This document shows positions 403 through 56,127 of a stretch of DNA of 64,000 nt, piece after piece. The notes under the pieces were generated by a model that ran no database searches, was not told the origin of the DNA, and was given only the letters and a program-made list of their open reading frames with translations. Positions within the stretch are counted from its first letter, which is position 1; every line of letters begins with the position of its first letter. The translations under genes were made by a program, and so were the position numbers. This stretch comes from Candidatus Scatovivens sp. (GTDB lineage: Bacteria > Bacillota > Clostridia > TANB77 > CAG-508): positions 64,001-128,000 of the forward strand of contig JAZRKN010000014.1 in the NCBI GenBank assembly GCA_045646345.1, read 5' to 3'.

Positions 403-1608
403 ATGGATATAAATTCAATCTCTGAAAACCATGAAGAAGATGATAAAAGTCTATGGGATAGAAATGCACCAAACTTTTCTGAAAACGTTATAAAAACAGT
501 AGAAGAAAGTGAACATATAACAGAAAGTGATATAAATCACGAAGCTGATGCTATATTAAGGATTTCAAAAGGAGAAGTTGCTTTAATAGGACCGGAAGAA
601 AAAAAATCAATAGAAGAAGCAACAAGAAATTGTGTAAGCAAATTAGGAGGAAATGTTTCAGAAGAAACGATTCAAAATTTACTTAAAGAATTATATGCAA
701 TGAAAGATGTTAAAGAAGCTATGGACTATTTAACATTAAAGTTAAACGATGTATTAACAAAAATGGGAAAAACAGAAAATTTAGAAATGTTTTTAGAAGA
801 TATAATGCAAATAGATTCTACAGTATATAGCTCAAAAGAAGAGTTGATTACTACACTTAAATCGAATATGGAAAGAAACTATACTCCAGGAAATATATCA
901 ATAGAAGAAAATCATGCACTAATAGAGCAAACATTAAAAACAGTTTGTGATAGATTAAATGAGCAAGGAGTAGATTACTATGTTGTTGGTGCATTATCAA
1001 CTTTTATAGCAACTCAAACTCCATTGTTTAGATATCATGGAGATATAGATTTTATGGTATCAGAAGCAGATCTTCCAAAAGTAAAAGCTGCGATGGAGGG
1101 TACAGAATATGAGTTTTCAGATGATAGATTGGATAATAAGAGAAGATTAGCACAAGATGGAAGTCATGCCCAAGGAGAACATGAAGTAATAGCAAATCAT
1201 AAAGAAAATGAATTTCATATAGGGTATTTCATGTTTAGAAGAGAACCAGATGATTCTATAACAGTAAGAGAATATTTTATGCAAGAACAACCAAATGGCC
1301 AAATGATTCCAAGAATATTAGAAAGACACTTACCAAAAGAACTTGCAGAATTAGAATATTCAGGAGAAGAAACAGAGTTTGCAGGAACAAGATTTAGAAC
1401 ATCAACACCAGAGTCTGTAATTGCAAAAAAAGAATTTACAAGAAATCCAAAAGATATTTTAGATTTAGAAAAATTAAAAGGAAAAATAGATCCTGAAAAA
1501 AGAACTCAACTTGGAAGATATCATTCAAGTTTAAAGGTTGTAGAACCAGATGAAGTGTCTAGAAATATACCAAGAGAAGAAAAAGATGGACAAAGTTTAG
1601 ATGATTAA
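403..1608 (+). CDS. Nucleotidyltransferase-domain protein with a long acidic N-terminal extension
   Basis: YYVVGALS...RYHGDIDFMV pol-beta-like NTase motif and KD..DL near the C-terminus; AAGGAGG RBS; own terminator. Confidence 0.7.
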   Translation: MDINSISENHEEDDKSLWDRNAPNFSENVIKTVEESEHITESDINHEADAILRISKGEVALIGPEEKKSIEEATRNCVSKLGGNVSEETIQNLLKELYAMKDVKEAMDYLTLKLNDVLTKMGKTENLEMFLEDIMQIDSTVYSSKEELITTLKSNMERNYTPGNISIEENHALIEQTLKTVCDRLNEQGVDYYVVGALSTFIATQTPLFRYHGDIDFMVSEADLPKVKAAMEGTEYEFSDDRLDNKRRLAQDGSHAQGEHEVIANHKENEFHIGYFMFRREPDDSITVREYFMQEQPNGQMIPRILERHLPKELAELEYSGEETEFAGTRFRTSTPESVIAKKEFTRNPKDILDLEKLKGKIDPEKRTQLGRYHSSLKVVEPDEVSRNIPREEKDGQSLDD

Positions 1609-1610
1609 AA

Positions 1611-1654
1611 AATAATAAAATGAGTGGCTATAAAGCTACTCATTTTTATTATTT
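1611..1654 (+). terminator. Intrinsic terminator
   Basis: AAAATGAGT..ACTCATTTT hairpin with T-rich tail. Confidence 0.7.
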
Positions 1655-1808
1655 TGAGAAAATTATATCACAAATACTTTAAGAAAAGTGGAAAAAGTAT
1701 ATCAAAATAGAAGAATATGTGGAAAAAGTATGATATAATCATGGCAACAAAAATTAAAAAATGAAAAAGTAATCAAATCAAAATAAACATATATAAAGAG
1801 GTGATTTT

Positions 1809-2657
1809 ATGGAGTTTAAAAAATACGATAATCCAGTAGAATTTGTTGAAGAAAACGAAAAGTTTATTTTAGAAAAAGAGTGGTTAAATAACTTAATGGC
1901 AGGAAACTATAAAGATGCTCTAAATGAAGGTATTGATGAAAATTGGTTGCTTGCAAGAATTACAGATAATGGTAAAACAGAGCTTATATTATTACTTAGA
2001 AAACCATGGAAATTGTTAATGTATTCTCCAACAAATAATAAATCAGAAGAGTTATATAGATTTGCAGCAGAAGAACTTTATAAAATTGACCCAACACTAG
2101 ATGGTGTAAATACAGAAAAAGAAGTAAGTAATATTTTTGCAAAAGAGTTTTGTAAGTTAGCTGGAAAAGAACCTAAAGTAAGATTTGAAATGAGAATTTT
2201 AGTTTTAGAAAAATTAACTGAAGCTATTTTAAGAGAAGATGTAATTTATAGAATGGCGAAATCAGAAGACAAAGAAGTGTTAAGCGAGTATAGAAGAAGG
2301 TTTTCAGAAGAAGCTTTAAATGAAAATTTAACGCCAGAAAAATTAGATGAGTTATTTGAAAAGAATATGAAAAGAGGATATTTCGTACTTGAAAAAGATG
2401 GAAAAATTGTAGCAACAGCTACATCAAACAGACATCTTCCAAATGGTAAATCAATAGGAAATGTATTTACTCCAAAAGAAGAAAGAGGACAAGGTTTTGC
2501 TTATAATTTAGTTTATAGAGTTGCTAAAGAATTTTTAGATAGCGGACTAAAATATTGTGTATTATTTACAGATGATGCAAATCCAATAAGTAACCATGTA
2601 TATGAGAAAATAGGATTTGAAAAAAGAGCTGAAACAACAGAGATAATTTTTGTGTAG
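1809..2657 (+). CDS. GNAT family N-acetyltransferase
   Basis: VFTPKEERGQGFA acetyl-CoA motif A; NPISNHVYEKIGF. Confidence 0.9.
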   Translation: MEFKKYDNPVEFVEENEKFILEKEWLNNLMAGNYKDALNEGIDENWLLARITDNGKTELILLLRKPWKLLMYSPTNNKSEELYRFAAEELYKIDPTLDGVNTEKEVSNIFAKEFCKLAGKEPKVRFEMRILVLEKLTEAILREDVIYRMAKSEDKEVLSEYRRRFSEEALNENLTPEKLDELFEKNMKRGYFVLEKDGKIVATATSNRHLPNGKSIGNVFTPKEERGQGFAYNLVYRVAKEFLDSGLKYCVLFTDDANPISNHVYEKIGFEKRAETTEIIFV

Positions 2658-54210: not shown

Positions 54211-54327
54211 TAAAAGTCGGATTTTAATCCGACTTTTTGTTTTATAAAAATATATTGAATTTTTAACATCTTGAATTAGGTTACATAATGTGGTATAATA
54301 AAAAAAGGACAACAGGAGGCATAGAAG

Positions 54328-54867
54328 ATGAGACTTTGGACGATTCAAGATGAGGAAGTTTACAACACTATCATTGAAAGTGGTAAATACTGCTGTGATG
54401 CTAGTAAGTCTGAATGTTTAGAAGACAAACAATTTGTAAAAGCTTATGATTGGCTAGTTGGTAAAATGGAAGAAAAATTGGGTGAAGCTCCAGATGGAGT
54501 GAAATATCCAGTGTGGGCTTGGGCATACAAACCAGATTTAAGGACATTAAGAGGAAAATCTGGAAAAAGATGTGTTCGAATTGAATTTGAAATTGATGAA
54601 AAAGAGATTTTTATAACGGATTACTTTAATTGGCATTGTGCACTTAACAATTTTCCATTCTTTGATATAGAAGATGATGATGAATGGGAGCAAGTTTATC
54701 AAAAATATTGTAGACTAGAAAATGAAGAAAGAGAGCTTGAATTAAAAAAATCTTGGGAATCATTTATTTATCAAGAATTACCAGAAAAAATTAAATGTGC
54801 ACAAGTAACTTTCTGGGAGTTAAGGAAATCTCAAATAAAAAAAATCACATTTTTTATAGCCAAATAA
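54328..54867 (+). CDS. DUF3841-like protein
   Basis: MRLWTIQ..AYDWL..YPVWAW..WHCALN..SWE..QVTFWEL. Confidence 0.75.
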   Translation: MRLWTIQDEEVYNTIIESGKYCCDASKSECLEDKQFVKAYDWLVGKMEEKLGEAPDGVKYPVWAWAYKPDLRTLRGKSGKRCVRIEFEIDEKEIFITDYFNWHCALNNFPFFDIEDDDEWEQVYQKYCRLENEERELELKKSWESFIYQELPEKIKCAQVTFWELRKSQIKKITFFIAK

Positions 54868-55011
54868 GCAAAAGAGAAGGCACCGGCTGACGGTGTTTTT
54901 TTTATTATAATTAAAATAAAACATTGAATATAAAAATGATTAATGATAGACTATAAAAAAGTATATTATATTGAAACATGAGATAAAACGAAATTTAAGG
55001 AGTGAATTAAA

Positions 55012-56127
55012 GTGGATCTTAATGAAATTAGAAATTCGAATTTTTTTGGAAAATCAAAGGCTGAAATTGTTGATTTTTTAGGAAAAGCATGCGAAGAATT
55101 ACACCTTATGTTAGATATGGCTACATTAAAAAATATAATTCCAGCAGAACAATATGCAATGATAGAAGCTGCTATAGAAAAAGATACAAGAGATTTTCTT
55201 GATGAAGAACAACCAGGAGAAAATACTGAAGAACAAATACAAGAATATGTACAAGAAGATATTGAAGATAGAACATTTTCAATAAAAAAAGGTGAAGATG
55301 GAAGTTTTATATTAATAGATAATGAATCAAGAATGGTAGATTATAACCAAATTTCGGAAATTAATGCTGCAGAAATGGAACTATCAACTTTACTTACGAC
55401 TGTAAATAGTGCTATAGCTATAGTTGATAGTAGATATGGTACAGGAGATCTTGCTTGGGAACATGAAGAATTAAGTAATAGAATACAAGTTTTTTCAAAT
55501 GCATTAGCAGAAATCAGTGATGTTAGAAATAAAGTAGCTAATGGATTAAACATAAATTCAGCATTGGAGATTGCTAGAATAACTAGAGCAACATTTTCAG
55601 TAAATGATTTAGATGCTTTAGTTAATCCAAATGCAGCATCTATTGCTAAAAATTTAAGAATTTCTGAAGCAAAACAAATGCATAGACCAAGACCAGGTGT
55701 ATCAGAAGAGATGATTGAATCTCTTAGAAAAGAATATGTTAATGAAGATGCATATAGAATTGCATCACCGAATGGTGCAAAATTAAAACTTGAACCAGAT
55801 AGCTCATTTCTTCCCGAGTTAGACTTTGATTTAGATAAAATGCAAAATCCAGAATTTCTTGAAAAGATATTAGAAGCTATCTCAAAAGCTGCACCAGGTA
55901 TAGAAATATTTACAGGAGTTTATGGAGATGAATTAAGAGCTTTGATTAAAGATGCAACAACTTCTAAGGAACAAGATAAGAGTGTTGATGCCAAAAAAAC
56001 TGCTGAAAGATTTGCAAAAGATAGAGGTGTTGTGCTTGAAAATGAAAATGCACAAAGAGCAATGGAAACTGTAAAATCAAATGAACAAGAATTAAGAATA
56101 GATGATGAACAAATGATTGTTGAATAA
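55012..56127 (+). CDS. Hypothetical acidic soluble protein
   Basis: 371-aa ORF, AAGGAG RBS + GTG. Confidence 0.8.
   Translation: MDLNEIRNSNFFGKSKAEIVDFLGKACEELHLMLDMATLKNIIPAEQYAMIEAAIEKDTRDFLDEEQPGENTEEQIQEYVQEDIEDRTFSIKKGEDGSFILIDNESRMVDYNQISEINAAEMELSTLLTTVNSAIAIVDSRYGTGDLAWEHEELSNRIQVFSNALAEISDVRNKVANGLNINSALEIARITRATFSVNDLDALVNPNAASIAKNLRISEAKQMHRPRPGVSEEMIESLRKEYVNEDAYRIASPNGAKLKLEPDSSFLPELDFDLDKMQNPEFLEKILEAISKAAPGIEIFTGVYGDELRALIKDATTSKEQDKSVDAKKTAERFAKDRGVVLENENAQRAMETVKSNEQELRIDDEQMIVE

Follow-up and report, generated by a model that had tools for sequence, protein, structure and literature searches.

Among described secretion machineries a type IV secretion system (T4SS), that of Patescibacteria (Saccharibacteria), with a monoderm-type VirB4, PrgI/VirB3-like, TrsD-like and VirB6-like genes and tandem divergent VirB2-like pilins (PMC12102498; PMC12857230), resembles the one treated here, which belongs to the order TANB77. 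Whether Gram-positive bacteria have T4SSs dedicated to effector translocation has long been asked, according to a review from 2025 in which Patescibacteria are the one exception for VirB2 pilins (PMC12857230). C-terminal T4SS signals, the acidic E-block and chaperones are established (PMC10025392). We analyzed a stretch of 64,000 nucleotides, called the window below, of a Candidatus Scatovivens genome (C14:64001-128000 of genome G000; 1.79 Mb, 27.5% GC); Scatovivens has been placed in family CAG-508 of TANB77 (PMC13106387). For ten unrelated proteins of this window a shared charged, -EDR-like C-terminal tail had been predicted as a possible export or targeting tag. Our combined analyses indicate that this tail is probably, with considerable room for doubt, a signal for recruitment by VirD4 to a chromosomal, order-wide T4SS predicted to deliver proteins to another cell. 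Statements taken from the cited papers hold for the parts of these sources that were available to us.

The TANB77 system is like that of Patescibacteria in these genes and also in having no linked relaxase, in being chromosomal and in being nearly universal in a small-genome lineage with pili (PMC12102498; PMC12857230). It differs in that TANB77 belongs to the Clostridia, that VirD4 stands alone among cell-wall housekeeping genes, and that candidate substrates and a partner family (family P) are visible, none being named for Patescibacteria in these sources. The likeness is one of gene content and layout. With the Dot/Icm system of Legionella, its E-block and the adaptors IcmS/IcmW, TANB77 would share a loose acidic C-terminal signal on scattered unrelated genes and small adaptors for a subset of them, but Dot/Icm is a Gram-negative type IVB system with one adaptor pair in place of many gene-linked paralogues (PMC10025392). 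Agrobacterium VirB/D4 with the MobA Arg signal, Xanthomonas XVIPCD and Bartonella BID likewise put a portable C-terminal module, recognized by the VirB/D4 machine, on varied effectors (PMC10025392); unlike these, the TANB77 tail is negatively charged and comes as several short alternative modules rather than one domain of about 120 aa.

The nearest curated models for the TANB77 pilin, VirB6-like, VirB4 and VirD4 genes are the Mycoplasma integrative and conjugative element (ICE) families Mbov_0395/0396/0397 and the families CD1110/CD1115 (NCBIfam). Those belong to mobile conjugative elements, whereas the TANB77 genes are single-copy core genes, of which VirD4 alone passes the NCBIfam cut-off. 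The polyvalent proteins of conjugative elements resemble the putative TANB77 cargo in their zincin-like peptidase, LPD28 and RadC-type domains and in their predicted passage to the recipient, but they are encoded within the elements, and the text available describes no C-terminal signal shared by them (PMC5512222). The literature searched, with subscription journals and bioRxiv supplements outside the search, held no description of a TANB77 T4SS or tail system and nothing on Patescibacteria effectors with a C-terminal motif. The study that links this gut order to immunotherapy response via its Tad pilin (PMC11680825) has no VirB or T4SS term in its text or 7 supplements; PMC13155120 mentions TANB77 just as a mid-capacity gut clade, and the available part of bioRxiv 10.64898/2026.06.21.733656 does not mention it.

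The type IV secretion operon and VirD4

Genes were called by our own codon-score script (1,479 genes, 83% coding), which places stops exactly, starts and small genes less so. The original prediction had supposed a secretion system encoded elsewhere, and a T4SS operon was indeed found: it begins 5.4 kb beyond the window on this contig (C14:133442-155594), and a separate VirD4 gene exists as well. It consists, in this order, of seven tandem VirB2-like pilin genes, a PrgI-like gene, a TrsD-like gene, VirB4 and several polytopic membrane genes, and is followed by a glucosaminidase gene. All 7 pilins match PF18895, six of them over the cut-off, and VirB4 matches PF19044 over the cut-off and NF045971 with E 7e-61, below the equivalog cut-off. 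The PrgI position is taken by a 111-aa two-helix gene which is present in 53/54 loci and has no library match; the 54 full loci have 1-8 pilins within 10 kb, and a TrsD-like gene in 54/54. The tentative VirB6-like assignment comes from matches of 32/49 homologues to the Mycoplasma ICE channel model NF045848 (best E 1e-10) and from Foldseek, where the R388 TrwI/VirB6 stalk is at rank 3 with a probability of 0.72 but a weak E of 0.22. Among the VirB6-like genes, one (C14:148558-151395) ends in a tail-like ...PPEDDYYYV, which most of its homologues lack. No homologues of VirB8 or VirB1 were identified.

VirD4 lies alone among cell-wall genes at C11:129170-131231 and matches PF02534 and NF045973 over the cut-off; a second, divergent VirD4-like gene is at C15:214739-217099. 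VirD4 is single copy in 49/50 TANB77 genomes. An orthologue of VirB4, 55-80% identical, is present in 113/120 genomes of the order, with the closest relatives from Candidatus Scatovivens, UBA7001 and CAG:571, and in none of 144 other Clostridia (2 matches at ~30%). Four relaxase families were searched in all; PF03432, PF18555 and PF02486 are absent from the genome, and the sole relaxase found, a MOBV on contig C1 beside an integrase, is not linked to the operon. With no linked relaxase and with VirB4 a core gene instead of mobile and patchily distributed, the operon departs from what is expected of a conjugative T4SS. Besides this VirB4, most TANB77 genomes encode another paralogue of ~600 aa (24-35% identical; e.g., L102:613-2397), which was not found in G000.

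The acidic tail and its modules

The ten predicted C-termini, and four housekeeping ends said to differ from them, were all found at their coordinates. None of the ten proteins (0/10) has a hydrophobic stretch, so that they appear to lack signal peptides, as judged by hydropathy alone (19-residue scan). These genes and those coupled to them are listed below; ranks are those of the composition classifier described later.

403..1608, + strand: nucleotidyltransferase-like (PF14907 below cut-off), tail ...EKDGQSLDD
6268..6768, + strand: YqeG-like HAD phosphatase (TIGR01668 just under cut-off), tail ...VEDERSI; conserved, the weakest case
6833..7672, + strand: 279-aa orphan, tail ...LPKGREDR; in 5/40 same-genus genomes
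10135..11232, + strand: 365-aa orphan, tail ...EAGPELE; no Pfam/NCBIfam match, rank 147/845
19752..22748, + strand: SF2 helicase (PF04851, PF00271) with a sigma-70 region-4-like stretch, tail ...NSGERED; rank 5/845
24482..25672, + strand: 396-aa orphan, tail ...AEDEYVL; no family match
28089..28760, + strand: 223-aa orphan, tail ...KKDEGR, then a terminator-like hairpin
30852..32003, + strand: BadF/BadG-family sugar kinase-like (PF01869), tail ...KEHEDR, then a terminator-like hairpin
32143..37893, + strand: protein of 1,916 aa, one stretch of which is weakly metallopeptidase-like (weak PF20573), tail ...DNHEDR overlapping a ribosome-binding site (RBS)
37880..38038, + strand: 52-aa open reading frame (ORF) coupled to the 1,916-aa gene at that gene's end (RBS 37864-37871, ATG 37880)
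38044..38280, + strand: short member of partner family P (profile E 5e-11 and 1.4e-22)
55012..56127, + strand: 371-aa orphan, tail ...DDEQMIVE, with a family P gene 12 nt downstream; rank 25/845
56140..56649, + strand: partner family P, 169 aa (profile search; model pLDDT 85)

The carriers had been described as lineage-specific or divergent. This fails for the HAD protein ending at 6768, a conserved YqeG-like gene and no orphan, whose orthologues end in DEEQR, EEDEER, PEDER, EDNER and DEQSL. For the gene ending at 7672 the end was right, whereas the start is most likely 6833 rather than 6752.

Tails were counted genome-wide in the 1,352 proteins with a length of 100 aa or more and compared with two nulls, in which either the last residue was swapped between proteins or each protein's own last 30 residues were shuffled. 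The end [EDN]DR-stop occurs 8 times, with 0.85 (swap) and 1.24 (shuffle) expected, and outside the window (1,304 proteins) 5 times, with 0.64 and 1.24 expected (p 0.001 and 0.010). Arg-stop after at least three D/E was seen 12 times against 3.9 and 5.0 expected, whereas the Lys-stop control under the same rule is depleted (8 against 19 and 17.5). The enrichment over a null that the original prediction had called for is thus present for both kinds of Arg end. We also applied a looser rule (rule B, Arg-stop preceded by at least two acids) to 400 kb (312 proteins) of one same-genus genome, where it picked 10/117 non-core soluble proteins and 1/195 core or membrane proteins (p 3e-4), in line with the proposed split between core and orphan genes. 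By eye, and after having seen the tails, we picked about 49 candidates in G000, a number to be taken as an estimate and not as a test; their last 8 residues have a mean net charge of -2.1. The whole tail, 45-60 residues long, is built of a helix, a polar linker and an acidic end whose last residue is Arg or hydrophobic.

Such tails could be a mere by-product, if fast-evolving accessory genes in an A/G-rich genome gained disordered charged extensions, some of them RBS-shaped, an explanation that we find quite unlikely. The RBS overlap at 37864-37882 named in the original prediction is real: the RBS GGAGGAGG at 37864-37871 and the ATG at 37880 serve the 52-aa ORF. After the helicase gene end at 22748 there is a gap of 2 nt to a 63-aa ORF (22751-22942), whose RBS the helicase tail may also provide. 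The by-product explanation can further point to the classifier's area under the curve (AUC) of 0.70 on an internal window, to the weak outgroup contrast and to the lack of a single alignable motif. Overlap, however, can account for at most 3/10 ends. A same-strand gene follows within 25 nt in 3/10 tail proteins and in 11/49 candidates, against 399/1,352 genes genome-wide, and terminator-like hairpins come after the gene ends 28760 and 32003. With the coupling rate not raised, both nulls exceeded and the Lys control depleted, RBS overlap is ruled out as the whole explanation. Shuffles of the proteins' own composition also fail to give the residue order, the alignable modules shared by unrelated bodies are C-terminal only, and the end is retained in homologues sharing 30-40% identity.

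Relatives of the 6833 protein, from 66 to 29% identity, end in GRDDR, GKQER, GRDEK, KDERE, SDINR and GTIER, and the tail chemistry persists in homologues down to ~30% identity. The last 48 aa of this protein match the C-terminus of an unrelated 808-aa protein (C15:271383-273809) ending in ERDDR, which is the sole protein outside the family matched by the family's tail among 4,603 (E 3.8e-6). We sorted the 120 listed homologues of the 403-1608 enzyme, many of them fragments of unknown taxa, with our own regular expressions into 58 with a SAIEATE-type tail, 16 IGKATI-type, 8 own-type, 6 with a membrane helix, 13 tailless and 19 other. Profiles of the SAIEATE-type and IGKATI-type modules (~50 aa) have 3 and 2 matches among the 4,603 proteins; all five are C-terminal, on soluble proteins of 4 families with bodies unrelated to the nucleotidyltransferase (two of these carriers are homologues), and 4/5 of the carriers are upstream of a P gene. 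The proposed check of orthologues came out as predicted in the case of ribokinase, where the extension is present in the TANB77 proteins and missing from three outgroup ribokinases; a PDB search with ribokinase gave no match at a threshold of 1e-30. As far as these sequences tell, the tail is a portable module swapped among unrelated proteins.

A side observation concerns the six homologues with a membrane helix (P0222, P0224, P0226, P0227, P0231, P0235): the helix follows an SGF(I/V)T motif in place of the acidic tail and is perhaps an export tag of another kind in a different lineage.

Free C-terminal residues are common as degrons, which speaks for the tail being another intracellular signal: a degron, a membrane or pole anchor, or a mark for export by the Tad pilus or a sporulation channel, with family P as adaptor. 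The genome has a Tad-like cluster, as described for TANB77, and some genes that we read as sporulation genes; family P is also confined to the order, which is likewise reported of the Tad cluster (PMC11680825). The tmRNA tag here, however, ends in LAFAA, unlike the acidic tails, and these are found on accessory enzyme-like proteins, not regulators, and also on proteins of conjugative elements. A membrane helix in place of the tail in six nucleotidyltransferase homologues fits targeting better than degradation. Of the alternatives to delivery by the T4SS, we regard this one as the least likely.

Partner family P and the candidate cargo

Family P, a paralogous family of ~150 residues, was spotted beside tail genes and has 15 copies in this genome, two of them in the window (38044, 56140). 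It is present in 67/80 genomes of the order (30/30 of the same genus) and in all five families, forms 4,950 clusters at 50% identity and is found in 0/144 other Clostridia, that is, it is restricted to TANB77 among the Clostridia searched. The structural model (pLDDT 85) has a small helical domain, a long helix, a disordered linker and a C-terminal helix. Searches with Pfam, Atlas, PDB sequence, Foldseek and VIA-align gave no known relative, which is no proof of a new fold; no Pfam family is common to more than 2/140 members, the best PDB profile match has E 0.12 and the best Z is 4.0.

Blind to the tails, we collected from the loci examined in relatives all same-strand genes that lie upstream of P at a distance of up to 250 nt (n=78). 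Of these, 73/78 are soluble, compared with 753/1,152 overall, and at least three D/E are among the last 8 residues in 34/72, compared with 41/297 core proteins; 47/63 have no Pfam match (63 of 66 scanned). Their ends (NFEGR, VNEGR, MNDGR, DDDYVM, DDDEYYI, EGKEI, GVEIE) cover both the strict and the loose cases of the original prediction: the EGR/DGR ends recur like that of the 28089 gene, and DDDYVM and DDDEYYI resemble AEDEYVL of the 24482 gene. Since one family adjoins many unrelated proteins, we read P as an adaptor rather than an antidote; the analysis makes it a candidate chaperone or adaptor for a subset of the cargo.

Small orphan ORFs of 52-85 aa are tightly coupled to big tail genes at window positions 22751-22942 and 37880-38038 and at C6:37725-37892 and C16:58542-58799; they are candidate chaperones or antidotes other than family P.

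A composition classifier was trained on 55 P-upstream proteins of relatives, from which 14 proteins that have homologues in G000 and 3 near-duplicates had been removed, against 297 core proteins. It reached a cross-validated AUC of 0.92. The ten proteins of the window ranked 5, 25, 39, 42, 48, 54, 67, 147, 163 and 254 of 845 (median 51, p 5e-6), and 8/13 of the genome's own P-upstream genes were in the top 60.

The candidates are spread over 14 of the 19 contigs, each standing alone among housekeeping genes, and their GC content is close to the average (0.29 against 0.28). Most match no family: Pfam matches were obtained for 7/30 and 4/20 of this genome's proteins in two scans and for 16/63 of the P-upstream proteins of relatives, and the domains matched are HD, lipase-like, zincin, PfkB, BspA LRR, helicase, amidoligase, GH10, PHP, deaminase, DUF4116 and mTERF-like. 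Tail genes are patchy among genomes (1/120, 5/40, 2/60). The sugar kinase-like protein has a homologue in 1/120 family genomes, ending in ...DDGEER, and its sole PDB match is a MurNAc/GlcNAc kinase (E 1e-5); the 371-aa orphan at 55012 has just 2 database matches, both near-identical, and for the 1,916-aa protein the Atlas search gave leads below 0.9 (0.82). An amidase of a relative ends in FDEER and has no hydrophobic stretch, and Fic proteins nearby in relatives end in GREDR, HEDSVR and REDSGR. From this mix of domains (amidase without signal peptide, MurNAc/GlcNAc-kinase-like, amidoligase, Fic, HD, helicase-sigma) the target leans to another bacterium.

Three Fic-domain genes with acidic-Arg tails (L322:405-1321, L323:417-1324, L324:2518-3425) are each coupled to a 66-aa upstream gene; these may be toxin-antitoxin-like pairs that gained an export tail. 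Elsewhere in the window there are a region of higher GC (34%) with several orphan ORFs at 12001-16000, an HNH-domain gene on the minus strand at 29986-30654 and a type I restriction-modification locus from 58468 (58468-64000).

In a conjugative element of the same genus, soluble LPD28, ParB, DUF3848 and DUF3846/RadC proteins end in the same manner. Because soluble proteins of this element end alike, the sequences suggest that the export signal was inherited from conjugation. The same likeness feeds the chief rival explanation, which we consider unlikely, namely that the tails address proteins to the conjugation machinery of mobile elements, that the proteins are stranded cargo of the polyvalent type and that the core T4SS serves DNA or nutrient uptake or the like. 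The same ends are borne by 5/16 soluble proteins of the element, the integrase beside the MOBV relaxase has a tail-like end (...NDLEITR), and the patchiness of the tail genes would fit. But a single VirB4 match was obtained in this genome, where we saw no conjugative element; the tail genes are scattered singly with near-average GC, and family P, found in all five families, follows them. A conjugative element of a same-genus genome (G272 L248-L250, with VirB4, VirD4, DUF3801, NikA and ParB) also contains apparent polysaccharide genes.

Proposed delivery to another cell

As a model for delivery by the order-wide T4SS, drawn after the signals of Legionella, Agrobacterium, Xanthomonas and Bartonella (PMC10025392), VirD4 would bind the free acidic tail together with its preceding helix, family P would hold or deliver a subset of the cargo, and the cargo would cross the VirB4/VirB6/pilin channel into a contacted cell, contact perhaps being made by the Tad pilus. 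For the predicted effector repertoire of a secretion system elsewhere, the machine is present and the tails are enriched and portable, whereas the motif is broader than -EDR and the reading of the tail by the machine is what we infer.

Several results weigh against this model. Strict -EDR is found in 0/840 proteins (1.2 Mb) from nine genomes of other TANB77 genera and in 0/312 proteins of the same-genus genome, so that it is ruled out as an order-wide motif. What stands of the predicted shared tail is a common acidic end; the motif is looser and longer, with strict -EDR local to the lineage, and where it is absent, in other genera, ends such as FDEER and DEQER occur. Rule B fires on just 3/196 soluble proteins without hit from other genera and on 2/189 soluble proteins of the outgroup (400 kb from two genomes), a weak control. 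Within the same-genus genome 5/10 rule B proteins sit inside the conjugative element, and the conserved YqeG-like phosphatase and an integrase bear such ends too. The Arg consensus of Agrobacterium, R-X7-R-X-R-X-R-X-X, is present in 0/49 candidates. There is no universal motif: one profile hidden Markov model of all 55 partner-upstream tails failed, giving low-complexity matches only, from which we take the putative signal to consist of alternative modules that share one architecture. The classifier scores 21/507 membrane proteins above 1, and together with the internal AUC of 0.70 this means that part of its signal is orphan composition; a score above 1 is reached by 5/189 soluble outgroup proteins and 48/845 here, a weak contrast. 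As the machine is present in nearly all TANB77, there is no contrast within the order. Finally, in G000 and in 6/11 relatives inspected VirD4 is broken up into two frames, being continuous in 5/11.

The VirD4 split falls at an in-frame CGG codon. Because CGG clusters at ORF ends throughout TANB77, the split is, from the sequences, likely recoding rather than decay. CGG is within 25 codons of an ORF end in 15/35 cases in G000 (7.5% expected) and near ORF ends in 21/35 cases in ten TANB77 relatives, compared with 37/407 in two outgroups. An apparent +1 frame change at CGG is seen, e.g., at C15:218723-219527, C11:129170-131231 and window positions 4216-5767, and an S1-domain gene reads through as one protein with a four-letter Gly step. 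A tRNA-Arg(CCG) was not found in G000, where three tRNA-Gly(TCC) are present. This lineage-wide CGG +1 frame change could be a natural recoding.

If delivery by the T4SS holds true, TANB77 would be the second case after Patescibacteria and thus one of the rare dedicated protein-injection systems in Gram-positive bacteria. It would offer two handles that need no culture: the tail, open to assays with VirD4, and family P, which would mark the substrates of whatever genome is studied. What the order lives by, and hence how TANB77 might be grown, may also be read from the repertoire. Rather tentatively, we picture TANB77, this abundant order of uncultured gut Clostridia, as living on or off other bacteria like Saccharibacteria, injecting about 50 species-specific, tail-labelled enzymes through the core machine with P adaptors loading them. 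If such a lifestyle were true, it would explain the resistance of TANB77 to pure culture, and the tail-labelled proteins would be the first readable effector repertoire for such a machine.

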